Assembly (NCBI GenBank): GCA_040285825.1
Contig: JAUPSS010000003.1
Span: forward strand, 2,666,001 to 2,730,000
Direction of reading: 5' to 3'
Origin: Eukaryota sp. TZLM1-RC
Lineage: Eukaryota; Protista; Metamonada: BaSk clade
DNA length: 64,000 bases
The notes under the pieces were generated by a model. That model searched no databases and had not been told where the DNA came from. It worked only from the letters and a program-made list of their open reading frames with translations. The position numbers were made by a program, and so were the translations under genes. This document shows positions 1 through 62,879 of this stretch, piece after piece. How positions within the stretch are numbered: the first letter of the stretch is position 1; each line of letters opens with the position of its first letter.

Positions 1-927
1 CCCATCAAAGCTATGCGAGACGAAGTTGCTGTCCTTAAGGAACATCTCACCATGATGAAGTCCTCTGCCTCCGAACCTATCTCGTTCGCCACCCATGCTC
101 GTAAGTACCATGAGCTCTTCACTGCTCATCTATACAAGGAAAACAACATATTGTATCCAATGATTGATGAGCATTTGTCTGAAATTGACCATCTCATGCT
201 TACCCCTACCGTCAATCCAGATCAACTCCAAGGTCTCCGTTCCCGTGGTCAGTCCCTCGTCTCTGAGTTTGCAGTCCCTCAACCGTTCTCGTGTCCTCGT
301 GCTGCTCAATTAGAAGCTGTGGAAAATTCTTCATCTAAAGTCCTAGTCTCTGAACATGTGAATATCAAGACCATGTTGAATCTGTTTCGAAAGTACTGCA
401 AGAAATGTTCTAGTTTGAATGCTCTATATGATGTGGCATTAGCTGGCAAGTTTTTACGATTCTTTTCTGAATATGCTGATGACGTGCATCATCAAAAAGA
501 AGAAAAGATTCTTTTCGTTACTGCAGAACAACACTCTTTTCCAGTTAAAGGTGGCCCAATTGAAGTGATGTTGCTTGAACATGACCATAATAGAGAATTA
601 ATGCAGGCTATGAAGAAAGCACTTGCCAATGATGACGTTTCCGCTTTTATAGCTGCTGGCTTTGAGTATGTTCAGCATTTAACTCAACATATTTACAAGG
701 AGGATGAAATTTTATTTAAATTACTGGATAGCCACTTCAATGATTCTATCCATGCACAATTGTCCAAAGCCTATGAACAAGTTGATCATGACAGAAGGGA
801 TAGTGTTGGTGAGTTGCTGAGGTTGATGGGGGAGGTTGAGGGGGTTTTAGGAGAAGGAGAAGGGGTGACAATTGAGTTGAGTTGCGATGGATGTTCCAAA
901 CAGTTGGAGTGCCATTATAGATGCTAA
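1..927 (+). CDS. Multi-domain hemerythrin (HHE cation-binding) protein, 5' partial
   Basis: Frame is open from base 1 (PIKAMRDE). Repeated motifs HLYKENNILYP, EH...HHQKEEKILF, GPIEVMLLEHD and HIYKEDEILF are typical of bacterial-type hemerythrin domains. Confidence 0.9.
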   Translation, partial: PIKAMRDEVAVLKEHLTMMKSSASEPISFATHARKYHELFTAHLYKENNILYPMIDEHLSEIDHLMLTPTVNPDQLQGLRSRGQSLVSEFAVPQPFSCPRAAQLEAVENSSSKVLVSEHVNIKTMLNLFRKYCKKCSSLNALYDVALAGKFLRFFSEYADDVHHQKEEKILFVTAEQHSFPVKGGPIEVMLLEHDHNRELMQAMKKALANDDVSAFIAAGFEYVQHLTQHIYKEDEILFKLLDSHFNDSIHAQLSKAYEQVDHDRRDSVGELLRLMGEVEGVLGEGEGVTIELSCDGCSKQLECHYRC

Positions 928-1905: not shown

Positions 1906-2998
1906 TTTTGTTTAATTGTTCTGTTGGCGTTGGAAAATAAATAGACTGTTTTTTTTAAAAAAATCATCAGAGCCAAAATCATTCAATGACAGCGTGCTAT
2001 TTAGCAAAAACAGTGAGACACACGAAATTTTTGCATTTCTAGTCATATTGGAAACTTTATTTTTAATAGTATTATTGAATGATGGTGTTGTCAACATTTT
2101 TGTTGAATTGCAATCGTACCTGTGAGTCCTATTTTTTAATTAGACCTGTTCAATGGTCTTCAGAAAAATCATGGTTCAATCCGAGTCTTTTATTAGTTGA
2201 ATATTACCTTTATTGGTTTAGTGGGTTGAATTTTAGGTTGAATACTAATCCCTTTTCTTTTCCCTTCCCTGCTTAATCCCTGCCTAATTCCTTTTTTGTA
2301 TAACCCATATCAGAAAATTTTTGGGCGAAAAATCTGGCATTAATTAAATTTTCAAACTAAAAACTTAACTTCATTGCAGAAAAATGAGCTAAGAGATTAC
2401 GGTTATCATCCAAGTTGGTATTTGCAAATATAATCGTCAACTCCAAGATTGAGGTTCTCATTGAAGAACCTTTTTGTTTAATGGCCATAAGATTTTAATG
2501 GTGGACCATATGAAGATGGTACTCTCTTCTGGCAAGGAGGAGAACATCAGGCTATATGCAAGGATTATTCCAAGGACTGCAGTGATTCACTATTCAACAG
2601 GATAATATTTTGAGTGTTAGTCAATCCGAAAAAGACAGTATCGACAGCAACTAGTAGTCTTGGTGTCAAATCAGCCCTTTTAGAAAGTTCACCGAGACTG
2701 AAAAATTGATGTGTGAATAGATTAAGTCCACCATGTTTGTGAAAGAAAGCTACTTGCAACTGTAATCAATAATGTAAAACGACCTTAGCTGTGACTTTAA
2801 CAACCATGGCAAGCTCAGGAATGTACTGTGGATTAGAGAAATGCCATTCTCTTATCAAAGTGTAATATAAAAAGTTCTGTACAAGTAGAAGGTGTGGAGT
2901 TAATGAGTACACTATTATTAAACAATAGTTATTACAGATGAGAGAAACACCACTAGAAAGAGTACACGGGGAGTCCTAAAGCTCAAAAAAGAAGGTAA

Positions 2999-4400
2999 GT
3001 GAGGGAAATAAGAAAATAGTTTATGAAGTGAGGGGAAAGTGTGGGAATAGTGAAAAATTCGCAAAACCAAGTTGAAGGTTAAACACCTCCCAAAACAATC
3101 AACAGAAGTCGAAAATGGGGTGACAAGTGTAGAATTTGATACATGAGCTGTTTATTCTCACTACATGACAGACACCCACTCTGTGTCACGTGTATTCACT
3201 CGATCTTGTACACTTAACTCGCTGCTGACCCCTGCTGCAGTGCAACAAATTCGAACTGACCTTCCTTTGGTCACCGAAATTTGTCATGAAGCTTCTGTAT
3301 TGCTTCAATCTTTTCTTCTAAATTTTTCGTTGGCATCTAGAGCTTTAGTGGAACATGATGTATGGTATCTGTTTATGACCGTCATCACCAGTGGTTCTTT
3401 TCCAGAGCCATCCCCCTTCAAAGGACAACGCCATTTACTTCATATCTTTTACAATGGATTTCTTCCTGAAAGCCCACAAGACAGGTCTCTTGTTTCTTCA
3501 TGGGAAAATTCTTTGGTGCCTTATAGAAATTCATTCAATCTTTTTCTCAATGCTTGGCTGCAGTCTCAGAAATGTAATTTTATCAATAGAAAACGGCTTC
3601 TCATTACCTTGCTTGTCTGGGCTCGTAAATTAGCGTCTAACGTGAAGACAAGTTCACCTAAAATTTGTCAATCCTGGACAAACAACTTCATTCGTGCTCA
3701 TTGTAGAGCCCTGGATAAAACAAATGTATGTGTCAATTATCTTATATCTCTTTTACCAGACAAACCCTTGGCCCAACCCGAAGAAGTAGACGTTGATTCT
3801 GTTCTCGAACATTGCATCAATTTCCATGTGAAAATGGTTGTGTTATCAAAAGGACGTGAAGCACTTGTCAAACAGTGAATTTAATACAAGCAAACTGTCA
3901 AGTTGTTGCATGGCCGAGAGTATTCAAGCAGGCTCATGGCAGATGCGTATTTGTACTGAGTGTCAAATAGAAAATAACAGAGATATTTCCGTTGCAAAAA
4001 ATATTCAAATAAAGAAAAAAGCGGAATAGTGACTGGAAAGATATATTTGCACAAAAGATTGGTTGAGGAAATGAATGGGGAACCTGAACATACAGAAACA
4101 AAAACTTTGGAAAAACTGATATTTTATTTTGAGTTTTTTATTCTATTATTGATTTTTTTGAAAAACTTTTGAGACCGATCTACAAATATCTTAGTAGCAT
4201 TTGGTAGTTCCACTTAAATACATCATGTCGCGGGGCTTTGTTCTGTGAAATCAGTAGGTGTATTTAAGTGAAGTAGCCCATTGATGAAGATCATGATTGT
4301 CTTTGTCAAATGACGCTACATGTCTCTTATAGCCTGTGAGTAGACATTGAGAAAGTTGAAAACAGGAGTGAATTTCACATGGGAATGCATAATAAGTGAA
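2999..4400 (+). mobile_element. Internally deleted copy of Fanzor family 1 (non-autonomous)
   Basis: 3165-3825 matches the N-terminus of the 651-aa ORF and joins directly to its C-terminus (EFNTSK...CTEC...RDISVAKNI). It shares the 5' leader and the 3' non-coding tail; RuvC-I is deleted. Confidence 0.92.
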
Positions 4401-4442
4401 TAAATAAATATTGGTTTAGTGGGTTTCCTCAAAAAACAAGCA

Positions 4443-4934
4443 ATGTTCGACTCCTCTTCCTCCACCTTCCGCAAGAAAGTAACTCCATATCTCTCAGGGT
4501 TCTTGTTCACAGTTGGCATCTTCTTCTTTATTGATGCTGTACGTTTTCTTGTTTTAACTCTTTCACCGCAGATTGCTTATACACGCTTCCTAGACTCAGA
4601 CGACCAGCCTTCTATCCGTGTTTTCTTCTGGATTCCAGCACTTCTCGCTCTCGTGGCTTTCATGGGTCTCCAGATGATTGATCTTTCAAAGCTCCGGGGT
4701 GATGGATTCGGTGATGATGCCAAGATTACCCGCTACGGTCTCTTCTTTGTCATGTTGATAGCGTTCTCCTCTATCTTTATTGCTGTATGGATCCTCGTTG
4801 AACAGTACGTTCCAGAAGGCTCAGATGCATCTATTGATTCATGGCCGGGCTTTGCCCTTATACTGCATGTATTTTTGGTGTTACTGTCATCTTTTGTTCT
4901 TGCTGCTGGTAAATCACAAAGTGATGGTTTTTAG
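4443..4934 (+). CDS. UPF0220/Vps68/TMEM50-family 4-TM protein; probable 33-nt intron 4539-4571
   Basis: YLSGFLFTVGIFFFIDA, WIP and WPG motifs; four TM segments; in-frame intron candidate GTACG...TTTAAC...CAG. Confidence 0.8.
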   Translation: MFDSSSSTFRKKVTPYLSGFLFTVGIFFFIDAVRFLVLTLSPQIAYTRFLDSDDQPSIRVFFWIPALLALVAFMGLQMIDLSKLRGDGFGDDAKITRYGLFFVMLIAFSSIFIAVWILVEQYVPEGSDASIDSWPGFALILHVFLVLLSSFVLAAGKSQSDGF

Positions 4935-10120: not shown

Positions 10121-11017
10121 CTAAACAAAACTCTGAAGGGAATCGAAAACTTCTTCAATATATTGGGATTCATTTTGACGCAAATAAGTGTGAGTTTCCA
10201 TTTGATATACCCCATCACAATCAACTTCCATAGCATCAGCAGCATATTCATTGGACCAGTTTGGAGAGGCGAGGTCCATTCTGTCTTCCATTACCCGATA
10301 CTCTAATCGTTTCAGAGCAATGGTAATCTGAACAGAAAGCTTTGCCATCATGCCGATAATGTTGAATCCTACTTCAGACCATAGTCCTAGTTGCCCAATA
10401 TCAAAACCATCATGACTGAGAACCCATAGGATTGGGAAAGGAGTCCATGTGATTACAGTAAGGAGAGAGAGACTTCTCAGAGAAGAAGAACCTTTAAACA
10501 AAGATTCCTTTCCTCCAGAACATGTTTTGACAAGGTTGTTTAGGTTAATCCCCATTAGGACAAAGTGTATACAGCCAAAAGCAAAGAAGATAGCTTTCCA
10601 CTTCACACTGCTGGACAATGCGCCAAGAAGACCAGCAAAATTAGTGATGAAAACGTGAAACACCATGAGCATTGGCTTTAGTTGTCCTACATCAGCTATG
10701 ATTCCAAGCTGAATTTGTAGTAGTGGACATGTGATACACCAGTCAATGTACCGAGATATATTTACTGGATTGTTGTGGTTTTCAAAGTCAAAGAGGTCAC
10801 TGATACTGAGTAAAATACAAGTACCAGAAATAAACGCGATAATCGCTGAAAGTCCGTTTAAAGAAGACGCTTTGTTGGTAAGTCGTACACAAACGTCATT
10901 TGAACTAGTCGAACATTGTTCAGGTTTAGTGGGATAAAACGATTTGAAGTAGAAAACACATCCTGTTATGAAAAAAACACTGAGGGTGAAGACATCAGCG
11001 ATACCTGAAGGAGGCAT
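10121..11017 (-). CDS. Microbial (type-1) rhodopsin, DTQ motif, helix-G Asp replaced by Gly
   Basis: Seven TM segments; helix C RYIDWCITCPLLQIQ; helix F TWTPFPILWVLS; helix G GMMAK with the retinal-binding Lys. Confidence 0.93.
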   Translation of the reverse strand: MPPSGIADVFTLSVFFITGCVFYFKSFYPTKPEQCSTSSNDVCVRLTNKASSLNGLSAIIAFISGTCILLSISDLFDFENHNNPVNISRYIDWCITCPLLQIQLGIIADVGQLKPMLMVFHVFITNFAGLLGALSSSVKWKAIFFAFGCIHFVLMGINLNNLVKTCSGGKESLFKGSSSLRSLSLLTVITWTPFPILWVLSHDGFDIGQLGLWSEVGFNIIGMMAKLSVQITIALKRLEYRVMEDRMDLASPNWSNEYAADAMEVDCDGVYQMETHTYLRQNESQYIEEVFDSLQSFV

Positions 11018-11315
11018 TCAGTGAGCTACTACTGCTGATGAAATCAGGCAGGAATAGCTGTAAAAAGGAAAGAACAAACTTGAAACAAACTTTTATGATT
11101 TTCATGATTATGGTGATTTGTTTGAAAATAATTGTACTTTAGAAGTGATAGTTTTACAAAATAATAGTATGGTTAGAGGACATCATCATCGAGATGGTAG
11201 AATGATCGAAGTCATGATGTGTGATGAAACAAAAATAGATTAAAAGAATGGTAATATGTGCAACATTGAATCATTGTTACAAATATTGTCTATAACAATG
11301 AAATAAGTGTCCTTT

Positions 11316-13193
11316 TTGCACCGATGAGAGAGACTGAGTTTTTGAGAAGTGGAAGATTTTCTCCTTGATACCTTTTTCTTTGAACCTTTGTCAACCTATG
11401 CTCTCTGTAGGTATATCGGTCTATCTCCACCTTTTACATGTGCTTCCATCACTGCCAACATATTGAGCGAAGCATTTCGGTCTCTATTCCACAAACTTTC
11501 GCATGATTCACACATGGTAAGCCCGTGAATAGACATCTCATGCCTCTTTAGTGGCCTTGGCTTTCTGCACCATTGGAGTGTTTCAACTGTTTTCTCCGCT
11601 TTCTTACAGTTGAAACAAAGCAAACTGGTTCGAAACTCATCAATCAAAAAGACCTTATAACCAGCCTTTTTAAATAGAATTCTCAAACCTTTTCCTTTGG
11701 TAGGTTCTTTGAATTTCATGTGTTTCCGTTGTTCCCAGTCTCTGATTCCAATAACTACTTGGCCTGGATCACCAATTTCTGATTTGAATCTCTGGATCAT
11801 CTTTGCCTCAGATCTTGTGCGATTAATCTCAGCCCACCATCTTAGTTTCCTAAATATTTTTTGATGATAGACTTCACCAACAATAATATTCACCAAATTC
11901 TTTTGTTTGATATATGCCATAAATCTATCAAACCTGCAGCTTCTGGAATTGAATTGGGATAAAGTTGCTTCCCATACTGCCACAGATTTAGTTTTTTGTT
12001 CATTGTTATAATTGATAAATAGTTCTTCTTATCTTGCTTTTTCAGAACGTTATTGTTTCTCTTTACATTATAGAAAACATCAACAAAACGATATAAGTAA
12101 TCAAAGAAGAACTCCTGGATATATGGTTATATATGGTTTTGAAATTCACAATCAGTTTGTCAATTGTGTTATACAAAATATTACTTAATCCTATTTTTAA
12201 TAAAACTTTTGGAACAAGTTTTTCTTTAAAGTGTGGGTGATAGAATTCCAACAACGGACAACAACGATGATGTTCCAAAGCTGTTTTTGTCTTTGCGTTA
12301 AGGGAACTTCCCTCCTCACTTTGGGACGTGACCACAAGAAAAACGTCACGAAATAATTGGGTTTCAATTTTTGGTAAAATATCATTTGGGTTTAAGTCAA
12401 AAAGATGCAAATAATAACCACAAATGAATTCTAAACCAACAATAGAAATTTCCTGACACCTAATTACTGCCTCATCGATAACGTCAAGCATTTTCAAATC
12501 TCTGATGACTTTTTTAGCCTGCCCCTATAACCATCATAAGGTTTATGTTTAACAGTTTCCATGAAATGGTCATTGTTAAAAAAATTAAATAATTTCATTG
12601 CTAATTCTGTATCCCTCAAACAATAAACTGCAACAACAGTTCTTTTTTGGGATAAGGATAAATCTGAGAAGGGATCATCTTCTTGAACCTTCCAATACTT
12701 TGCAATATACTGAGCATCAAGGCCAATTGTACTTTCCCCTAATAAAATTTTAGAAACTGTGTTTAGTTTGCGTGGTTGATAATAACTTGGGTAAATACTA
12801 CAAGGTACAACAACAAATCGACCAGCAATTCAAGGGTTCAAGTGTTTGTGATTCAATTCTATTACATTTGAGTTATAGTATTGAACCCATTCACTAGCAT
12901 CGATTTCACCCTGAAAAAGTCCTCATTTTCGGAATGTTTGATAAAATGTGGGATGTCAAATGTCACAATATTGAAACCGCATATTATATGAGGATTGTAA
13001 GTTTTTAGAAATTATTTGATGTGGTTGACATCTTTGTATAATTTTCCACAATTGTTGTTGTTACTGATTAACTAACTTGCTAGACAGATGAGGAATTTAC
13101 ATGATGACGTGGCATTTGTTCAAAAACAAGTATTTCTATTAATAAACCTCTTTTCTCTCTTTACTTCTTTGGTATTTCTGCCTAACGTCATCA
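11316..13193 (-). mobile_element. Degenerate exonuclease-Fanzor element, family 2
   Basis: Fanzor1 C-terminus (IDEFRTS..CFNC..HGL..CESC..WNRDRNASLN) at 11396-11983 and Fanzor N-terminus at 12063-12540. These are preceded in register by PolB exonuclease motifs GFNIVTFDIP (~12950-12980) and AVYCLRD (~12611-12631). Frameshifts and an internal deletion remove RuvC-I. Confidence 0.85.
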
Positions 13194-14339
13194 ATAATTA
13201 TTGGCCCTCATTGCAGATGAAATCTACACACGTACAACATCCGTCCCTTGCTTCTATGGAAGTGGATGATGTTCTGTTGTTCCTATAACAGTGGAAGGTG
13301 TACTCTTCTGTTACACCGAAAAAGGACCTTGTTCCAGGAAGGTTCCTCGTTGACCCCTTCTTGTTAGAATCATTGGTTCTCACAAGACCTGGGGTCGATT
13401 CATCCGATGAGGTGTTTCTGGATCATTTAAGATCCTCCATCTCGTTTTCCTCGTACGAGGAATTCAACTTGGTGATGTCTGAGTTGAAGGTTGATGTCCG
13501 TAAGGGCGACGTCCGTGAACGTATGTCCTGCTACCTGAGACATTTTCTTCAGGCGAAAAGCAGGGCTTCCGGACTGAAACTGCCTGACTCAGCCTTAATG
13601 ATCAGATTCGCCAAGGGTATTTTTCCATTAGGACTGCAGAAATCTCTGATTTCTCGAATTCCGGATGAGGTATTCCCCGATTTTCCTACATTGGTAAATA
13701 CCGCAGAGGATGAACGACTTGATTGCACGCGAGTAGCTTCTTGGAACAGGTCTTCAAAGACTGTTTCTGAAAATACCGACTCTGTGCGTCAAGCTGGTAT
13801 GAAGTCTCGTTCATCCCATAGGTCTCGCAATTTGACTGAAGGGACTTGTTTCAAATTTCACCAGAAAGGTCATCTAGCTCGTGATTGCCCCTCAAAAGTT
13901 AAGCACGAAGTCAATCATTTACGCCACGTGCCTCAGTATCTCACAAATCCCCTTTCTTCATTATGCTAAATGGTTCACGAAACTGTTGAAAGAAAATGGG
14001 AAGAAGTAGTGTTGTTGTTACTGAACATATTGTTTCAAATACTGTACATTGTCCACAAGTATGACTAGTGTATTATTATACTATTATTGTATCTTAGTGA
14101 ACAACACATAAGATTTCATTGGTTGATTCAAAGGTATCATGATGAGAAGGAAGTGTTGTTCTAAAGGAATATTTTCATTTGACAAGCTTTTGATCTTCAT
14201 GGATATGGAATTGTGATGCCGTTAGGCAGAAATACCAAAGAAGTAAAGAGAGAAAAGAGGTTTATTAATAGAAATACTTGTTTTTGAACAAGTGCCACGT
14301 CATCATGTAAATTCCTCATCTGTCTAGCAAGTTAGTTAA
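13068..14339. repeat. ~126-bp inverted repeat pair (13068-13193 / 14214-14339)
   Basis: TTAACTAACTTGCTAGACAGATGAGG...CCTAACG and its reverse complement, about 2 mismatches. Confidence 0.9.
13298..13969 (+). pseudogene. LTR-retrotransposon gag fragment with decayed zinc knuckle
   Basis: CFKFHQKGHLARDC (CX2CX4HX4C with one Cys lost); capsid-like segment. Confidence 0.75.
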
Positions 14340-14843
14340 AATGCATATGCGTTTTCAATAATAATGATAAAGTTTTTTGAAAATAAGAACGGAAAATTAT
14401 CCTTGTTGATGATGTATCAACAGTAAAACCCTAAACCACCTTGGAAGCCATAAATGTGATTAGAATTCATTGACGTGTTAAACGTTTTTCAAATCTATTG
14501 TCTCTTGATTCGTTCAGAATCTTTACCAGCACTGTTACAACTAAAAGAACCAATGGCTTGAAAAAATGATTCAAATTGAGCTAAATTATAATCTCAATAT
14601 ATTGTTAATACAAAAGGTCATCATTTTGACAAATGGCAAGTCTCCTGAGGCAAAGTTAGTTGACTCATCTTTTGTAGGGGTTTATGGTCGGAAAAATTCT
14701 GTCTTAGCATTGCATGATATATGATCAATTAAGCTTTAAGCTACTATAGTCCACGTTCATCTTCCAGTGGATGGTGTCACAGAGCCACCTTTCACTTTTA
14801 ATAACCTTCGTCTATGGATATAACCATTAAGATTGTTGAAAAC

Positions 14844-15168
<325 letters not shown>

Positions 15169-18557: not shown

Positions 18558-19300
18558 TACTGTGAATTTCACCTATCGTGCATTCCCATGTGAAATTCAC
18601 TCCTTTTTTCAACTTTCTCAATGTCTACTCAGAGGCTGTAAGAGTCGTGTAGCGTCAGTTGACAAAGACAATCATGATCAACCTCACAATAGGCAACCTC
18701 ACTTAAATACACCTACTGCTTTCATAGAACAGAGCCTCGCGACTTGATGTATCTAAGTGGATCTACTGAATGCTACTAAGACATCTGTAGAGCGGTCTCA
18801 AAAGTTTTTCAAAAAAAAATCAAAAATGAAATAAAAAACTCAAAATTAAATATCAGTTTTTCCAAAATTTTTGTTTCTGTATGTTCAGGTTCCCCATTCA
18901 TCTCCTCAACAGATCAGTTGAGCAAATATATCTTTCCGATTACAATTCCGCTTTCTTCTTAATTTGAATATTTTTTGTAGCGGATATAACACTGATATAA
19001 CACTGTCATATACTATTTGACACTCAGTACAAATACGCATCTGCCATAAGCCTGCTTGAATATTTTTGGCCATGCAACAACTTGACAGTTTGCTTGTATT
19101 GAATCAACTGTTTGACAAGTGTTTCACGTCCTTTTGATCACACAACCATTTTCTGAAAGTCCTTGCTGATCCATATCAATTAACTTTTCGGCAATGAGAA
19201 GGGAACTTGGCAGAACCCACAGCAAGATAGAGTTTTTCAGGATGTCCAACCAGCCTTTGAAATTTGCTGAGCCTCTCTCGGAACCGTCTCCCTTTTTTTC
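18558..19300 (-). mobile_element. 3' fragment of Fanzor family 1 including the complete right end
   Basis: RRFRERLSKFQRLVGHPEKLYLAVGSA... plus the same 3' tail, ending GTGAAATTCACAGTA. Confidence 0.9.
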
Positions 19301-19490
19301 GTATGGAAAGTAACCTGTAATCGAACTCTTGGATGAGTTGATTAACAATTGTACATAGGGAATGTACTCTGACCATGCATCGTAGGCGTTAAAATCTACG
19401 AGCAGCTTCCTCAAATTCTGCAGAATGTTACGGTGACGGCGTTCGACTAAACCGTTGGACTGAGAGAAGTGAGGGACGGACTTTGAGACC
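19300..19490 (-). pseudogene. Ty3/gypsy integrase fragment embedded in Fanzor sequence
   Basis: SVPHFSQSNGLVERRHRNILQNLRKLL...QLLINS; a paralogue of 28159-28400. Confidence 0.8.
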
Positions 19491-22616: not shown

Positions 22617-24572
22617 TCATCTTCTCAACAGAGCATCTGGGCAAATGTATCTTTCCGGCCACAATTCCGCTTTCTTCTTAATTTGAATATTTTTTGCAGC
22701 GGAAATATCTCTGTCATATACTATTTGACACTCAGTACAAATACGCATCTGCCATGAGCCTGCTTGAATATTCTCGGCCATGCAACAACTTGACATTTTG
22801 CTTGTATTAAATTCACTGGTTGACAAGTGCTTCACGTCCTTTTGATAACACAACCATTTTCTGAAAGCCCTTGCTGATCCATATCGATTGACTTTTCGGC
22901 AATGAGAAGGGAAATTAGCAGAACCCACAGCAAGATAGAGTTTTTCAGGATGTCCAGCCAGCCTTTGAAATTTGTTGAGACTCTCTCTGAACCGTCTCTC
23001 TTTTCGTCTGCGGTTATCAAATTTAATTATTTTCCATTTCTGGCGATTACTTTCCAAATACACTTTCCTCCTGACCAAATTCCAATGGTTCAAATATTGG
23101 TTGAAATTTTGAACGGAATATTGGTTGGGAGAGTGTTTACTGGGTGAAGGTTTTGCCCTGTACCTCCTGCCAGTTGGACAAGGGATAACTCCACATTGAT
23201 AATCATTTAAGAAGTAACCACATAATCTTGATTGGCCAAGATCAACGCCGATAAGGGGGCTTTCAGGTAAAATTTCGACTGGATGTCTACGTCTTCGACG
23301 GGGCATTTTTTTAGTACCCTTCAACTGTGTTTCTCTGGTTTTGTTGGCATTAGGGTCACTTTTCATTTCATTTTTTGATCTTCTTTTCTTTTTCGGTGGT
23401 TCATCCAGCTCATCTGTGTTTTCTGAGTCATTATTTTTACCTTCAAAGGTCAAAAGCAGTTCATTACCATTAGTTTTCAATAAAATTTTGTTAAATCTAT
23501 TTTTCAAACTTTTTCTGTTGATATTGAATTTTTGGTAAGGACATTGTTTGAATATTCGTTTCAGACATGTATTTTTGATAAACTTTGTTTTGGAAGATGA
23601 TCCTTCAATAATTGGAAATTTTTTCACAGAGTGGAAAATTTGTGAAGGTACCTCAATAAATTTAGAACCTTTATGAGAAGCTAAAGGTATTATTCTAAAT
23701 TTCTTCCAGCAATGCATATGAGAAAAGAAAGTGAGTAAGTATTGTGAAATTTTATGATTGAAGAGAAAAAGCTCACTAATTTCCTTTGATGAAAAAGTAA
23801 TTTTATCATGTGAGGACAGTAGGGAGGCAGTGGTAGGAAATCTTTGAAGGAGATTCAAGATGAACTTACATGCATTTAATAAGAAGAATCTTTCTCTTGA
23901 ATTATTCAAATTGAAATTGATGAGGTATTCAAGAACAGAATCAACTACTACTTCCTCGGGTTGGGCTAGTGGTTCATCTGGCAAAAGTGAAAGAATATTA
24001 TTTGCAAAGACATTTGTTTTATCCAGGGCTCTACAATGAGCACGAATAAAGTTTTTTGTCCAGGATTGACAAATTTTAGGTAAACTTGTCTTCACGTTGG
24101 ACGCCAATTGACGAGCCCGACAAGCAAGGTAAGACGAAAGCCCTTTTCTATTGATAAAATTACAATTCTGAGATTGCAGCCAAGCATTGAGAAAAAGATT
24201 TAATGAATTTCTATAAGGTACCAAAGAATTTTCCCATGAAGAAACAAAAGACCTGTCTTGTGGGCATTCAGGAAGAAATCTATTGTGAAAGATATGGAGT
24301 AATTGGCGTTCGCCTTTAGATGTGGAAGGCTTAGGAAAAGAACCAGTGGTGATGACGGTCATAAACAGATACCATACATCCTGTTTCACTAAAGCTCTAG
24401 ATGCCAACGGAAAATTTAGAAGAAAAGATTGAAGTAATAAAGAAGCTTCATGACAAATCTCGGTGACCACAGGAAGGTCAGTCCGAATTTGTTGCACCGC
24501 TGCAGGGGTCAGCAGCGAGTTGAGTGCACAAGACCGAGTGAATACACGTGACACAGAGTGGGTGTCTGTCAT
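22617..24572 (-). CDS. Intact Fanzor (eukaryotic TnpB-like RNA-guided endonuclease), 651 aa, family 1
   Basis: RuvC-I IGVDLG, RuvC-II SEFNTSK, zinc finger SCC...CTEC, RuvC-III DRDISAAKNI; NLS PPKKKRR; Fanzor1-like N-terminus. Confidence 0.9.
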   Translation of the reverse strand: MTDTHSVSRVFTRSCALNSLLTPAAVQQIRTDLPVVTEICHEASLLLQSFLLNFPLASRALVKQDVWYLFMTVITTGSFPKPSTSKGERQLLHIFHNRFLPECPQDRSFVSSWENSLVPYRNSLNLFLNAWLQSQNCNFINRKGLSSYLACRARQLASNVKTSLPKICQSWTKNFIRAHCRALDKTNVFANNILSLLPDEPLAQPEEVVVDSVLEYLINFNLNNSRERFFLLNACKFILNLLQRFPTTASLLSSHDKITFSSKEISELFLFNHKISQYLLTFFSHMHCWKKFRIIPLASHKGSKFIEVPSQIFHSVKKFPIIEGSSSKTKFIKNTCLKRIFKQCPYQKFNINRKSLKNRFNKILLKTNGNELLLTFEGKNNDSENTDELDEPPKKKRRSKNEMKSDPNANKTRETQLKGTKKMPRRRRRHPVEILPESPLIGVDLGQSRLCGYFLNDYQCGVIPCPTGRRYRAKPSPSKHSPNQYSVQNFNQYLNHWNLVRRKVYLESNRQKWKIIKFDNRRRKERRFRESLNKFQRLAGHPEKLYLAVGSANFPSHCRKVNRYGSARAFRKWLCYQKDVKHLSTSEFNTSKMSSCCMAENIQAGSWQMRICTECQIVYDRDISAAKNIQIKKKAELWPERYICPDALLRR

Positions 24573-24759: not shown

Positions 24760-25190
24760 ATGAAAAACGCTCTCAGCATCATCAACAGATTAGTCTACGA
24801 TACTTCTTTGTCTAAAGAACGTTTCTTTGTTGGTTTTGATGATAGATTTGGCGGTGTATTCTTCCTCCCTCTTCACGATTTTCTTGCCTTATCTGTACCA
24901 TCTCACAGAATTCGCTACATATCTAAAGGAAACTCAATTCTCTGGTCTCGCACAAAACGAATCAACCTTATTGGCTCTGTTGCACCTTCTGTTTCTTTAT
25001 TCTCATCTCCAACACCTGGTGTTCTCTCCCGATATTTTCCTCCTCATGCTACTGGTAGAAAGAATTTCCAGTTACCCTTCTTCTCTAACATTGTTTCTTG
25101 TAGTGTAGGTGTTCATCATACATTGGCACTCACTGCTTGTGGTAATTGCTATGGATTTGGTCTGAACAAATCTACCAATTAGGCAACAAC
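24760..25190 (+). CDS. MJ1316 (RNA cyclic-end recognition) domain fused to an RCC1 repeat; apparently frameshifted or truncated
   Basis: IINRLVYD..FFVGFDDRFGG..VPSHRIRYI..ILWSR, then VSCSVGVHHTLAL..GNCYGFGLN with QLG in a shifted frame. Confidence 0.7.
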
Positions 25191-48343: not shown

Positions 48344-49302
48344 TGGCCTCGAGGAATTGGATGGACTCAATTTTTGAAAACTTTTCAGTGAAAGAAATGG
48401 AGTTGTCGCTGTGATGATCAATGAAGCTTTCACTTCAACAATATATCCTGTTTGTTTTGAATAGGTTGATACGTTTTTGAGGGTAACCAATCCTACATTA
48501 TATTAGGGCTGTCCAAGTTCTGTTCTGCTCAGTTCAGTTCAGAAATAAATTTGGAACTTGAAATGAACTGAACTGAACCAGTTCCGAACCGGTATAATAA
48601 AAGAATAGTCTTTTTTTAAAAAAAATTTTATTTTGAAAACAATACGAACTAATTTCCTTAATATCTTCTCCATTCCTTTAGAGAGACTAACGTGACAACG
48701 GACAAGACCATTTGGGAGACGGGTTATATGTTTCAGAACCCAGGACCTGTTGGGTGAAGTGAAAGGAGAAGATATTGTGTGTTCTTCCATGGAAATGAAA
48801 CGAAAGAAGTCAAATGCAAAATATAAACTTTGATTTGAAAGTTTGAAAAACCAAATTAAACAAAAATTAAACAAATATTTATTAATTACTGGTTGTATTC
48901 ATTTATTTTAAGTCATTGCAATAACTGAAAACAAGTTATAAACAGTAGTAGAAAAACAAGCTGAGACATTGGCTGAACTGGTTCAGAACCAGTTCAAACT
49001 TGTTCGGAACCTGAACCTATCATTCTTGAACTTAACTCAACCGGAAATTCTCTGAACCTGAACTGAACTCAACCAGTTCCGAAATGAACCTGGACAGTTT
49101 TACATCATATAAGAACAAAATTCCGGTTACTACTTGTCATGGTTTAATAGCTTGCAATAGTGAGAGTTGTAGATTCAGTAACAAAGGCTCAACAAAGCTT
49201 TTCAATAGAAATAGGCTACCTTGTCTGAATATGTCTGCAATCGCCGGAGCCAGAATAAGTGCCAATGAAAGGGCTCAGTATCTGTGTAGTAAATAGTTTT
49301 TG
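48344..49302 (+). pseudogene. Degenerate 3' copy of Fanzor family 3, interrupted by a hAT element
   Basis: RGIGW..MINEAFTS..PVC..RVTNP | PVTTCHGLIACNSESC..LFNRNRL..QYLCSK matches 56677-57010. Confidence 0.88.
48504..49102. mobile_element. Non-autonomous hAT element (599 bp)
   Basis: Imperfect TIRs TAGGGCTGTCCAAGTTC / GAACCTGGACAGTTTTA; 8-bp TSD CATTATAT/CATCATAT; subterminal GAAC(T/C) repeats; BED-finger remnant RSWVLKHI..VRC on the minus strand. Confidence 0.88.
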
Positions 49303-56676: not shown

Positions 56677-59600
56677 CTATCTACTACACAGATACTGAGG
56701 CCTTTCATTACCTCTCATTCTGGCTTCAGCAATTGCAAACATATTCAGACAAGCCAGCTTATTTCTATTGAAAAGCTTTGTTGAGCCTTTGTTACTGAGT
56801 TTGCAACTCTCACTGTTACAAGCTAATAAACCATGACATGTAGTAACTGGAGTCTTTTCTCTTCTATAGAATCTGGGATTTGCGACTCTCAAAAACGTAG
56901 CAACCTTTTCAAAACAAACAGGACATTTTGCTGAAGTGAAAGCTTCATTAATCATCAATACTTCAAATCCATTTCTTTTCAGAAATTGAATCCATCCAAT
57001 TCCTCTAGTAGGTCTCTGATGTTTCAAATTCTTGGAACCTTTTTTACCATAATCACCCATTAGTATTAAAGTGTCTTTTGGATTGCCAAATTGCTGAACA
57101 AGGTTTTTTAACAACCAACTTTCAGTCCTTTGCTTGTGAATAAAAGCTTGCATTTTATGAATGCTCCACAAGTCAAGACTATAAAAGTCAATTGTCAAAA
57201 AAACTTGCCGAAGTTTGGCAACCACAAAGTTGGAAAAATTTATAAAAGTTGCTGAATTGGCAGCAAACGCGGATAATTCGGTGTTTGCATCTTCAATTGT
57301 CATTTCATTAGACTCTATCATTTGGTTCCTGTCGTAATCTACCTCAGTATACTTTATCGCCCATCGTTTTTGCTTTTCATTCATCCTACTTTTCAAAGAC
57401 GATGACATCTGAGTCATTCTTAACCATTTGTACTTCTTGTCTTGATTCATCACCCGACTATTTCTTTGCTGTTCAGTTTCATGTTCAGGTACCATGGCTA
57501 ATTCTTGATCAGTCTTTCTGCTCCCAAAATACAATAAATCACGTTTTCCAGGATCACAAACAACAATTCGTTTGCCTTGAACAGTATCAACATCAACATC
57601 ATCAATATATAAATCCGAAATACTAGCCTTGTTGTCTGGCTTACATTTCTGACCTTGTAAATCCCGACGAACAAATTCTACTGCAATATTAAATCCATCT
57701 GTGGGATAATGTTGTTGAATTTATAGCTCTTCTGTTTGAACATTGGTTGGTTTAAGTCGAGAATATTAGACCAAAAGTCAAATTGTTGAGGTGGTTTAAG
57801 TCTATGAACTTGGGCTAGTGTATTGACCATTTTTAATCTCTGATCAGGCAACAAATCGTCCATCAATGTTTGTCTAATAATTGTCCATATTGTTCTTGTA
57901 TCAATGGGAAAATATCCAGGACCTACAGTGGTTGAAACAGGAGAAATGTGATAAGGTTTTTTCTCTCTACTGGAAATATATTGGGCAATTGTAATTGCTG
58001 GTTTTAGGAATATTTGAGGATCTTTTTCAACAGCGTCTGCAAGAAAATGTATATCCACTGGAAATATGTTATCAACTAAATTCTCGTCAGTGACCAAATT
58101 CTCAATTTGGCAAGTAAAAGGCTCAATAAGACCTTCAAATATGTCTCTAAGTTCATTATTTCTTATATCATGATGTTCACATAAATCGAAAAATTCATCA
58201 TTCAGAAGGTCTGAAATATTTTCAGGATGATGAAACAAAGAACTCAAGCAATCTCTATCATCAACTAAAAACAAATTTTTGAATTGACGAAGCCTAAATC
58301 TATATAGTGAAATTATAGTAGATAATGGCGTTGAGTATCCACCCAGCTTGTGCATTTCTGATAACACATTTTCCACATCTGGTTTGTCAAAGTAAACATT
58401 AATAAATCGATTAATATGTTTTTCATAATTCAATTTCAAGTTATTCTCAAAATTGGCAAACATTACTGGGGCCATATACCCAGGTGGTCTACTGAATCCA
58501 TCAGTTGGAAATCGTGGAAAGAACTCAGGCCTATATCTCAAATGGTCTACATAACTCAATGTTTTGTTCAACTTTTGTTGTTCAAAGGTGGTCGATAATC
58601 TATAATCTCCTTCACCATAAACAAAGTTTTCAAAATCCTGTGGAAATGCACTCTTTGGTTTCACCATTTCTTGCCCATAATACTCAGCTGAAATATAACG
58701 AATTCTGGCCATTAATGATTCATATAATTGGGCAGATATTCGTGGTAATGACAAATTACGTTCAAAACAAGACTGTAAATACAGCTTTAAGCAACAAGTG
58801 GTGTGAATACGTAACTGTTGAAATTTTAAAGCAGTTTCTCTCAATTTGAGTATCACATTCGAATGTTTAACCATTGAGTTGACGGTTGCTCGAATGGTTT
58901 TATAAGATGATAAAATAAATTTGTCTTTCTGAAACAGCACGAAAAGTTTCAGACAAAGGATACAATCATGAAACCCATATTGAATCGAATTTTGTATCAG
59001 AGGAGAAGTAGCTAAACAATCAATTGGCAAAATATGGGAAAATTCCTGATGAAGTTTGATTTTCTTTTCATTTATCATTTTATATGCCAAATTGCCTAAC
59101 CCATGTCCGTAGGGTATTTTTATGAATTTTTTGGCAAAAACCCAAGTATCTAAAAGAAAAAAGCCATTTTCCCTGATGATAACTTCTCTCCATCTCGGTG
59201 AAAGTTGATTGAGTACATCAATTGCTGTATCATCTCGAACAGTGGGAAATGGTAAATCAAAATAATTCAATCTATTTTTTAAAACCTGTAAATCAAACTG
59301 CATTAAATTGTGATTAAGAAAACAATGGGGTTGATGAGTACCAGCAATGTTTTTTCGTCAGAGAATATTTTTGCCTGCACAACCATATCAATGTCTGGTA
59401 ATCTGATTTGAAAGCTCATTCTCAACATAAGTGAATATTTACTCTCCAAAAAGAAATTATGGTGGTCCAACTTACCAAATAACAATCGAAAGTAAAAACA
59501 CTTTTTGATCTGAAATCCACTCATCCATTTGCTCATCATTTTTGATTTTCAAAAGATTTTTACCCTCTTTTTTCCTTTTGTTGATAATCTTGTCAGGAGG

Positions 59601-59957
59601 GAAAAATTGGCCATCATGACTTTGGTAAAGATGACCATCCTGATAGGTTTCAAGATCAAAGCACATAACAGTAAGAAGATTTTGATTTGGGTTCATTGAT
59701 TTGAATTGAATCAATGCACCAGGCTTCAAGCCACTACGACTTGGTTCAATTTTTCTGACCATACTCGGTTTCAATGGTTTTTTTGTCAAAATCTTCCTGT
59801 TTTCAATATTCAACATTTTATTCTAAATACATATTTCTCGGTTCAGTGCATTTTGTTGTTTTTTCAGCTTACGCTTTGATGTTTGTTGGTCAAAAATCGC
59901 ATTTCTAATAATTTTTGATGGAGGAGTTGATTCAAAATTAGATCTTCTCTTTCTGGG
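56677..59957 (-). pseudogene. PolB-type 3'-5' exonuclease-Fanzor1 fusion (~1090 aa reconstructed; one in-frame TAG, ~3 frameshifts), family 3
   Basis: ExoI CFDLET; ExoII PHCFLNHNLMQFD; LLDTW; ExoIII QYGFHD. The Fanzor N-terminus YKTIRATVNSMVK follows in the same ORF, then TDG, IVVCDPGKRDL, MINEAFTSAKCPVC, CHGLLAC and LFNRN. Confidence 0.88.
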
Positions 59958-60035
59958 ACCAGGATTTGCTTCAACATCTCCATCAATTGTTAAATCAACA
60001 GTAAATGGGTTTGTTGATAGAAGATGTTGGCAGCT
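59955..60035 (-). other. 2A ribosome-skipping peptide
   Basis: SCQHLLSTNPFTVDLTIDGDVEANPG|P matches the D(V/I)ExNPGP consensus. Confidence 0.85.
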
Positions 60036-61770: not shown

Positions 61771-62879
61771 GAAATAATTCAATGACAATGTTTTCGAGAT
61801 TCTTGCATTTCTTGCTACATTGAACGTTGTGTCATCAATGGAGAACAATTGCGGGCAGCACACAAGGTGATTTGTGGAAAATTTGATCAAGTACAGGTTT
61901 CAGGTAATAACATTTCATCAATGGAAAAATTTTATTTTAATTCAACTTTCATTTCATTTGTATTTCATTTTTACAGTCTTCTTCAATGTGAGCACACAGT
62001 ACAAATGTTGGCAGTACCATGGTTGACAAATAGTGATAAATCTCATGACTTATTCAAACATACATCTTGTTTTCAGAGTGTATTTTAAATTAATAAAAAT
62101 ATTTGAAAGTCACCAGCAATCATATAGATGCGGCAGCGGTGAAACAGTTGATGACAAAAACAACACAGAAAGCTCTAGAAGGTCATAAATGCAGAAATAT
62201 GTTGATACACAATCATTTAATTTAGGTCAACCATGATAATTTCAATCAAATGGTAGATTTACTGAGCCATCATTTCCATTGAATAATTTAGGAAACCATT
62301 ATTATTTTTTGTATGTCGATCTTTCAATCTCTTCATCAAATGCAAAAATAAATGAACTGAGGGATCGTTGTTTGCTTATCACAATCTGCATCTGTTTTAC
62401 ATAAACTTCTTTATATATGAATAACAACTATAATGAGTATGTAAGATATTAAGAATATAGCAAAAAAACAGTTTCAGAGTGTTCGTAGCTACTGGTTTAA
62501 AAGAGCCTTAAGTATAGCACACCACACATTTTTTTATTATCTTTGTTTATTTATACATCTTTGGTATATCACATTTAAAAGCAAAGAAACAATGGTTATT
62601 TACTGAACCCTCCTTAACAACAAATAGTCAGTTGCTCTGCTGCTTCTTTTTGAGAAACTCTTAATGTTTAAAATCTCGCTATAGTAGTAATAAAAAATTG
62701 CAATTATTGATCTGATTTCATTGGATCTAATTGTGGCTGATACTTATATTATTTACACGAATTAACATTAGCAACGTAAATTGAAAACAAAATTTCAAAA
62801 AGTTTATTAGGCGACAGTAAATGTGACCTTGATCCTCCTGCAATCGTGGTATTCGAAAAAACAATTCATTTTTTGTAAA

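Follow-up and report, generated by a model that had tools for sequence, protein, structure and literature searches.

The window, by which we mean the whole 64,000-nucleotide stretch of TZLM1-RC DNA that was analysed, carries on its minus strand a decayed gene (11272-13029) in which the remains of a family-B DNA polymerase (PolB)-type exonuclease run directly into a Fanzor1 nuclease. It is a dead, decayed copy of a multicopy mobile element, which we refer to as family 2. In six-frame translation the gene falls into separate open segments for ExoII, for ExoIII, for the N-terminus of the Fanzor and for RuvC. The features of the locus are:

12911-13029, minus strand: truncated exonuclease remnant with its 5' part gone; ExoII lies inside it and ExoI is absent
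12978-12943, minus strand: ExoII, GFNIVTFDIPHF
12563-12910, minus strand: second half of the PolB-type exonuclease
12769-12734, minus strand: KLNTVSKILLGE, within that second half
12625-12611, minus strand: ExoIII, YCLRD
12510-12562, minus strand: junction, with an in-frame Met and the lead METVKHKP (12539-12562), then a one-base loss
11998-12509, minus strand: Fanzor1 N-terminal part, presumably the WED/REC region to judge by its position
11993-12000, minus strand: breakpoint of an internal deletion that removed RuvC-I; a loose contig end lies at 11992
11396-11992, minus strand: Fanzor1 C-terminal part, stop at 11396-11398
11647-11624, minus strand: RuvC-II, LIDEFRTS, with its Glu at 11636-11638
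11606-11617 and 11501-11512, minus strand: C4 zinc finger
11491-11480, minus strand: RuvC-III, WNRD, with the RD present
11272-11395, minus strand: right end with a candidate omega-RNA scaffold, closing in a 12-bp hairpin (11272-11300)
13053-14339, plus strand: separate gag-bearing element, not part of the fusion, abutting the truncated 5' end
13068-13193 and 14214-14339: 126-nt inverted repeats of the gag-bearing element
13289-13966: gag/zinc-knuckle ORF of the gag-bearing element

The original prediction had placed the gene at 11316-13193, and both limits had to be moved: the right end of the element lies at about 11272, where sister copies diverge (11271-11272) and the flanks are variable, and 13193 is the end of one repeat arm of the gag-bearing element. 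The right-end hairpin region scored z -2.06 over 74 nt and z -0.11 over 129 nt, and the candidate omega-RNA region had no match in Rfam. The left end has been lost from the window copy. The repeat at 13068-13193 was considered as a terminal repeat of the Fanzor element and rejected, as contigs connect this repeat with the interior of the gag-bearing element, whose depth it also follows. The possibility that ExoI lies beyond the inserted element was likewise dropped, as 14340-14900 gave no match to residues 1-105 of the sister protein described below. The TTAA found at both ends of the gag-bearing element may be a target-site duplication, although contigs there show a split-repeat structure. 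No DNA transposase was found among the 33 frames scanned.

A search of 70 candidates with the ExoIII piece recovered two proteins, each of them from Eukaryota sp. TZLM1-RC; their clusters led to a sister protein, P0112 (KAL0218993.1, 450 aa). In a single ORF, P0112 holds ExoI (FDIET), ExoII (FNILKFDI) and ExoIII (YCLRD), followed by a Fanzor1 N-terminus. Its tblastn match to the window has an E-value of 1e-135 and is therefore not due to chance; in a frameshift-aware alignment, 274 of 338 positions over residues 107-447 are identical. Homology begins at 13029, which corresponds to residue 107. Residues 1-106, which include ExoI, have no match at or upstream of the window copy, and elsewhere in the window they gave only scattered chance-level matches (E 1.3 or worse). 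Relative to P0112 the window copy has three frameshifts (12911-12912, 12510-12511 and 12124-12125, the third accompanied by about four extra codons at 12121-12137) and two stops (13012-13014 and 12830-12832).

The motifs quoted in the original prediction were all recovered on the minus strand, both by six-frame translation and in the P0112 alignment, including the ExoII pattern N-x3-F-D and the ExoIII pattern Y-x3-D, which the window copy shares with P0112; the ExoI pattern D-x-E is present in P0112. ExoII and ExoIII do not share a frame as had been read, and each of the two exonuclease segments contains one of the stops. The RuvC-II Glu and RuvC-III Asp are intact as claimed, the Glu in its rearranged position directly upstream of the [TS][TS]xx-C4 zinc finger (LIDEFRTSLLCFNC ... 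CESC), but the nuclease is not intact, because RuvC-I fell within an internal deletion of about 1 kb, or about 340 codons as judged from alignments with P0002 and P0003. The RuvC-I Asp lost here is present as ADPGK in the family-2 fragment P0002. Taken piece by piece, the ExoII segment matched PF03104 at E 7.6e-4 with 19.4 bits, where 23 is the cut-off; neither the ExoIII piece nor the Fanzor N-terminal piece, each on its own, matched a Pfam family; and the C-terminal piece matched PF07282 with 31.9 bits, above the cut-off of 26.3.

The single-nucleotide slip predicted in an A-run near 12512 is real and lies at 12510-12511. One X1 contig (12319-12673) and one X2 contig (12140-12672) span the junction in frame, their single gap against the window being an extra base behind 12509, and at least four family-2 gene models (P0109, P0111, P0112 and P0136) also carry the junction in one frame. 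Because the X1 and X2 contigs cross the junction with one extra base, an intron or gene-model artefact is unnecessary as an explanation. In run X3, coverage was limited to the C-terminal part and the inserted gag element.

Family 2 comprises at least seven gene models (P0002, P0107, P0109-P0112 and P0136), all of them fragments, all found in TZLM1-RC only and 84-92% alike. No complete family-2 ORF was present in the records found. A canonical RuvC D-E-D can be assembled across copies, with RuvC-I taken from the separate fragment P0002, and the exonuclease and RuvC-II/III occur in cis solely in the broken window copy. An intact family-2 protein would be about 980 residues long.

P0112 matched PF03104 with 57.5 bits (cut-off 23), and its best solved relative was yeast Pol delta (E 1.9e-8, residues 97-254). 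A PolB-exonuclease match was thus obtained as the original prediction had anticipated, and no full-length family-2 copies without the domain came to light. A structural model built from a 49-row alignment (pLDDT 73, pTM 0.54) has an RNase H-like PolB exonuclease fold. All 47 Foldseek matches listed for it were family-B polymerases or evolved variants of them, headed by Pol delta at E 3e-7; because the alignment contained PolB rows, this resemblance is not independent of them. Matches in the Atlas were to PF03104 clusters. The exonuclease has a clean boundary where the ExoIII helix ends, and Fanzor sequence follows directly. The PF00136 polymerase domain is absent from every fused protein scanned, and it is carried by 32 of 33 exonuclease-only matches scanned, the remaining one having a sub-threshold PF03175 match. 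Judged by sequence, the exonuclease derives from the proofreading domain (3'-5', DEDDy) of a family-B DNA polymerase, and its enzymatic activity is predicted. These matches do not point to a Polinton protein-primed PolB (PF03175) as donor; the trees contained no protein-primed PolB. Likeness to RNA/DNA-primed PolBs (Pol delta 3IAY and the PolBs of large DNA viruses) extends to ExoI-II-III, the fold, KLNTVS..LLGE and AVYCL.D, whereas the fusion has neither the polymerase domain nor the PolB N-terminal domain; the donor may have been host Pol delta or a viral PolB.

In the other half of P0112, residues 386-433 gave weak matches to GtFz1 and SpuFz1. For the C-terminal part, solved matches with E up to 1 were confined to three Fanzor1 proteins, the best being PpFz1 (E 6e-17) and SpuFz1 (E 2e-15). 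Judged by solved structures, Fanzor1 proteins are nearer to the nuclease half than TnpB or Fanzor2 proteins are. With the known Fanzor1 structures (SpuFz1 8GKH, PpFz1 9CF0 and GtFz1 9CER) it shares the split RuvC, the Glu before the C4 zinc finger and the terminal RD. The closest Fanzor relatives are stand-alone Fanzor1 proteins from giant-virus contigs and metagenomes (P0003, P0004 and L001-L080, many of them GVMAG), which are 38-53% identical over the C-terminal part (one outlier 25%) and have a similar N-terminal lead. They differ in being mostly 630-670 residues long and in lacking the exonuclease in 105 of 105 proteins and 80 of 80 loci. The window also contains a 651-aa Fanzor ORF that belongs to an 82-member cluster, in which all 14 other members listed are TZLM1-RC proteins.

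A second type of fusion, family 3, has a copy in the same window:

56677-59996, minus strand: family-3 comparison copy
59955-59996 and 59646-59660, minus strand: its 2A-like motif and ExoI (FDLET), respectively
59289-59312 and 58965-58979, minus strand: its ExoII and ExoIII, respectively, in one ORF with ExoI and the Fanzor N-terminus
57544-57558, 56932-56952 and 56758-56772, minus strand: its RuvC-I, RuvC-II and RuvC-III, the last with Asn

Family 3 forms a 42-member cluster, and full-length single ORFs running from the exonuclease to RuvC-III exist for the family-3 type in P0141 (1281 aa) and P0288 (1096 aa), although most gene models recovered are fragments. P0288 matches SpuFz1 at E 4e-31 and also Pol delta, at E 1e-3; an Atlas search with it gave no usable match. 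In three family-3-type lineages a 2A-like motif lies upstream of the exonuclease and not between the domains, and therefore the two halves would be released together; 2A sequences are known from non-LTR elements (PMC3708506). Proteins of the family-3 type have Asn at RuvC-III. We rejected this residue as a sign of inactivation, as it reproduces the non-canonical triad of GtFz1, which is active with the same residue (PMC11423790).

A profile made from six family-2 and family-3 proteins was searched against 1.84 billion representatives and gave 1,288 matches at E up to 0.001. Among the 150 matches listed, 62 had the exonuclease only, 81 had Fanzor only and seven had both; the seven fusions came from TZLM1-RC (2), TZLM3-RCL (4) and GEM-RC1 (1), all Skoliomonas assemblies. 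TZLM1-RC is Skoliomonas litria, a free-living soda-lake metamonad, and TZLM3-RCL is the deepest Skoliomonas branch, the most divergent SSU rDNAs being 88% alike (PMC11603281). None of 107 longer relatives of the family-2 RuvC part, 105 of them outside Skoliomonas as far as named, has the exonuclease, and neither does any frame of the flank in the best 80 of 467 viral matches, about 12 of which have less than 2.1 kb upstream. Pattern scans of metagenome and viral contigs, which need close pattern matches and so give weak negatives, found no fusion; the two viral loci that they picked up are plain PolB genes.

Six lineages have a complete exonuclease domain (family 2, family 3 and the P0138, P0141, P0142 and P0149 types), and in all six the ExoI Asp and Glu, the ExoII Asp and the ExoIII Asp are kept at pairwise identities across lineages of only 20-35%. 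As far as sequence conservation can indicate, this pattern speaks for a functional enzyme in the family-3 clade. It also makes it very improbable that the exonuclease is an inert passenger, acquired through insertion of a Fanzor element into a polymerase gene or through capture of a piece of one, and the fixed spacing between the domains in 6/6 family-3-type lineages adds to that case. The passenger reading draws on the fragmentary state of most recovered gene models and on losses in single copies, with His for the ExoIII Tyr in P0110 and Thr for the ExoII Asn in P0149. For family 2 alone the selection argument carries less weight, since copies with 84-92% likeness are too young for decay to be telling; the case against a passenger is strong for the family-3 type.

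The exonuclease-Fanzor fusion is therefore real, conserved and not a one-off. In the tree of either domain the family-3-type proteins group together at 100/100. They comprise at least six lineages from three Skoliomonas assemblies, and by these trees their fusion is old within Skoliomonas. The old, diversified clade envisaged in the original prediction thus stands for the family-3 type; family 2 may or may not go back to the same fusion. The congruence that had been sought between exonuclease and RuvC trees was mixed, with Fanzor trees separating the families and exonuclease trees either joining them weakly or separating them. The junction spacing said to parallel family 3 proved similar and not equal: by hand count, the first WED aromatic lies at +25 from the ExoIII Asp in family 2 and at +21 in all six family-3-type lineages.

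Family 2 stood apart from the family-3 clade in three of three free Fanzor trees, which include composite rows for both families: at 96/92 with 21 rows under LG+G4, at 82/85 under C20, and with 36 rows inside a 98/98 clade with seven stand-alone Fanzors. Family 2 is a long branch, and the stand-alone rows were partly found by similarity to it, so sampling bias is possible. AU tests of one Fanzor clade gave p values of 0.074, 0.133 and 0.338 (21-row LG+G4, C20 and 36-row trees), and one clade is therefore not rejected. The RuvC-only tree was unresolved. For the exonuclease, a quick tree of 54 rows placed family 2 among PolBs (SH-aLRT 93, unstarred), and two trees of 26 rows grouped it with the family-3 clade, at 85/65 in one and 69/37 in the other; the 85/65 join was flagged as long branches meeting, and the 26-row set, from which P0149, P0127 and 26 PolBs were left out, gave a topology that differs from that of the 54-row tree.

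These results bear on whether the two families go back to one fusion, their split in the Fanzor trees being a long-branch artefact, a reading that we hold tentatively and at somewhat less than even confidence. It gains from the AU tests and the exonuclease joins, from the domain boundary and the KLF..F after ExoIII that both families have in common, and from the finding of fusions in Skoliomonas only; the confinement of all fusions found to one genus leans toward a shared origin. Besides the free Fanzor trees, it has to accommodate a family-2 RuvC that is 52-53% identical to stand-alone Fanzors versus 29% to family 3, and a family-2 exonuclease whose scores reach 79 bits with ordinary PolBs and at most 52 with family-3 types among the matches listed. 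Family 2 moreover has Asp at RuvC-III where family 3 has Asn, it is without the post-ExoI insertion, and KLF is common in PolBs too.

The junction itself leans the other way. METVKHKP, whose Met is retained in the +25 linker of family 2, resembles the starts of stand-alone Fanzor1 proteins and sits where those proteins begin; BLAST alignments start at that Met. Of 105 stand-alone Fanzors, 48 begin M-x(2-4)-K-x-K-P, these 48 being related sequences whose representatives are not the nearest rows to family 2 in the 36-row tree. The +25 linker against the fixed +21, together with METVKHKP at the Fanzor start, leans toward a separate event for family 2. A second, independent exonuclease capture in family 2 is possible, at rather low confidence, and a single capture followed by a Fanzor swap is doubtful. 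The fullest version of the separate-event reading, in which two independent fusions in skoliomonads produced cut-and-trim enzymes for homing and the younger, family 2, was joined at a giant-virus-type Fanzor1 start codon, is on the unlikely side as a whole.

Compared with known Fanzor1 proteins (Bao and Jurka 2013, PMC3627910; Saito 2023, PMC10432273; Xu 2024, PMC11423790), the fusion adds an N-terminal PolB exonuclease of 250-260 residues in the same ORF. A natural exonuclease-Fanzor fusion was not found in the literature searched, which was without subscription papers and Repbase. The word 'exonuclease' occurs 0 times in the main texts of PMC10432273, PMC10530073, PMC3627910, PMC10711439, PMC10691335, PMC11423790 and PMC13565253, and 'Fanzor' 0 times in the Skoliomonas genome preprint. 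Two supplementary files of PMC10530073 and one of PMC10711439 contained no exonuclease match; figure S1B of PMC10530073, on extra Fanzor domains, may bear on novelty. The exonuclease-Fanzor1 fusion is thus apparently undescribed so far. Accessory exonucleases are carried by other transposable elements, including a DEDDy 3'-5' exonuclease in rotifer Terminons and LTR elements (PMC6431247) and a DEDDh exonuclease in P and piggyBac elements (cited in PMC3627910), but these serve other element types and are not fused to TnpB or Fanzor.

For the function of the fusion, the proposal that we favour, at about even confidence, is that the exonuclease trims the break ends made by Fanzor, so that homologous repair copies the element back. 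An omega-RNA combining the right end (about 11272-11395) with flanking sequence would guide the protein to the empty site, where the protein would cut 16-21 nt from the TAM, as does SpuFz1, which cuts after bases 16-17 and 20-21 (PMC10432273). The TAM-side end would then carry a short 3' tail of right flank that is unmatched in the element-bearing donor and would have to be removed before synthesis could copy the element. The tethered exonuclease could clear this tail in cis, a host polymerase would extend into the element, and trimming would incidentally prevent simple re-ligation. Excision and empty sites are assumed in this scheme, because no transposase, TAM or target-site duplication was identified.

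There are precedents for parts of end trimming. OMEGA nucleases take part in restorative homing (PMC13565253), and a review credits TnpB and IscB, but not Fanzor, with demonstrated homing. In T4 td intron homing, a homing cutter and a PolB exonuclease act on the same break (I-TevI, the gp43 exonuclease and DexA; PMC2988022), and the 3'-5' exonuclease of the T4 polymerase gp43 affects homing efficiency (PMC2988022, PMC12153337); there the exonuclease is supplied in trans by the replicative polymerase and the cutter is protein-guided, whereas here it is fused to a cutter of the RNA-guided type. By proofreading, Pol delta can trim an invading 3' end by up to 40 nt, but the proofreading-defective pol3-01 allele left the outcome unchanged in the single-strand-annealing assay of the same paper, which counts against tail trimming (PMC10868807). 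Homing also depends on 3' single-stranded tails, and an unrestrained 3'-5' exonuclease would make these shorter. Nor is an exonuclease generally needed for homing, because the 105 relatives outside Skoliomonas and the 80 viral loci are without the domain.

Tethering and catalytic conservation would fit equally well with an exonuclease that, in the manner of engineered exonuclease-Cas fusions, chews the break toward deletion-type repair or destroys the target, be it a competing element, a virus or a re-cut site. Engineered TREX2-Cas9 fusions increase editing efficiency (PMC13370227), and the 5' overhangs left by SpuFz1 have recessed 3' ends that would be substrates for a 3'-5' exonuclease (PMC10432273). 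We nevertheless regard this function as unlikely: the natural target would be the empty site, because the element would take its guide from its own right flank, and deleting an empty site would neither restore nor spread the element.

An improbable role for the exonuclease is to mature the 3' end of the omega-RNA or to clear excised or single-stranded element DNA, given that the domain derives from a DNA-polymerase proofreading domain, the known substrate of which is DNA. The rotifer retroelement DEDDy exonucleases, proposed to process the 3' ends of structured RNAs or ssDNA, offer a parallel for such a role (PMC6431247), but Fanzor RNPs produced in yeast show activity although they lack an exonuclease (PMC10432273).

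Fanzors are familiar as RNA-guided cutters that act alone; a conserved, tethered proofreading exonuclease suggests that processing of the break ends is a limiting step. The fusion is a natural counterpart of the exonuclease-nuclease fusions engineered for genome editing, and because P0141 and P0288 are full-length natural ORFs, the family-3 type can be assayed as deposited. If family 2 is a separate event, a single protist genus would have evolved the same fusion on two occasions, and that would hint at a gap in host repair that selects for it.

Replacement of the RuvC-III Asp by Asn is common to the family-3-type Fanzors, being found in the database proteins P0141, P0287 and P0288 and in the window copies. 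The known Fanzor1 GtFz1 has the same non-canonical triad. A 2A-like ribosome-skipping motif precedes the exonuclease in family 3 and also in two lineages of the Skoliomonas assembly TZLM3-RCL, its carriers besides the window copy being P0139, P0142, P0149, P0289 and P0290. In the window family-3 copy this motif and ExoI share a frame, separated by one stop.

56758-56772, minus strand: RuvC-III with Asn, family-3-type Fanzor
49036-49293, plus strand: family-3-type Fanzor with RuvC-III Asn
59955-59996, minus strand: 2A-like motif DLT.DGDV..NPGP (family 3), upstream of the exonuclease

Between motif and exonuclease, P0149 (898 aa, TZLM3-RCL) has a Ulp1-like protease stretch, recognized from motifs by eye (PF02902 matched only at E 0.59), which suggests a longer polyprotein. 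The single gene model of P0287 (2027 aa, TZLM3-RCL) encodes a DEAH-type helicase followed by a full exonuclease-Fanzor, and may be a merged prediction.

P0112 (P9112_004646), a family-2 gene model, and P0131 (P9112_004644), a family-3 one, lie on the same contig with locus numbers two apart, a proximity that may reflect a composite element or chance in a repeat-dense genome. A weak exonuclease-like remnant at 62717-62860 (plus strand) matches P0112 residues 178-220 (E 0.002-0.004) and could be an additional decayed family or a chance match. At viral locus L042, a giant-virus Fanzor1 (2102-4654, plus strand) has ~200 additional residues ahead of the usual N-terminus; no exonuclease match was found in this protein.

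Other genes are set among the repeats. One element bears TTAA at each end and contains a 15-nt direct repeat (13053-13067 = 14010-14024). Contigs connect 14024 to its left arm, and this split-repeat arrangement is reminiscent of tyrosine-recombinase retroelements.

13053-14339: element with 126-nt inverted repeats and a gag/zinc-knuckle ORF
10121-11017, minus strand: microbial-rhodopsin-like gene
13-927, plus strand: hemerythrin gene
24760-25182, plus strand: MJ1316-domain gene

The window also holds a third Fanzor family (82-member cluster), without exonuclease.

22620-24572, minus strand: intact 651-aa ORF
3023-4400, plus strand: partial copy
18558-19334, minus strand: partial copy

Among these three copies a 3' region of ~250-300 nt is conserved; it is a candidate omega-RNA.
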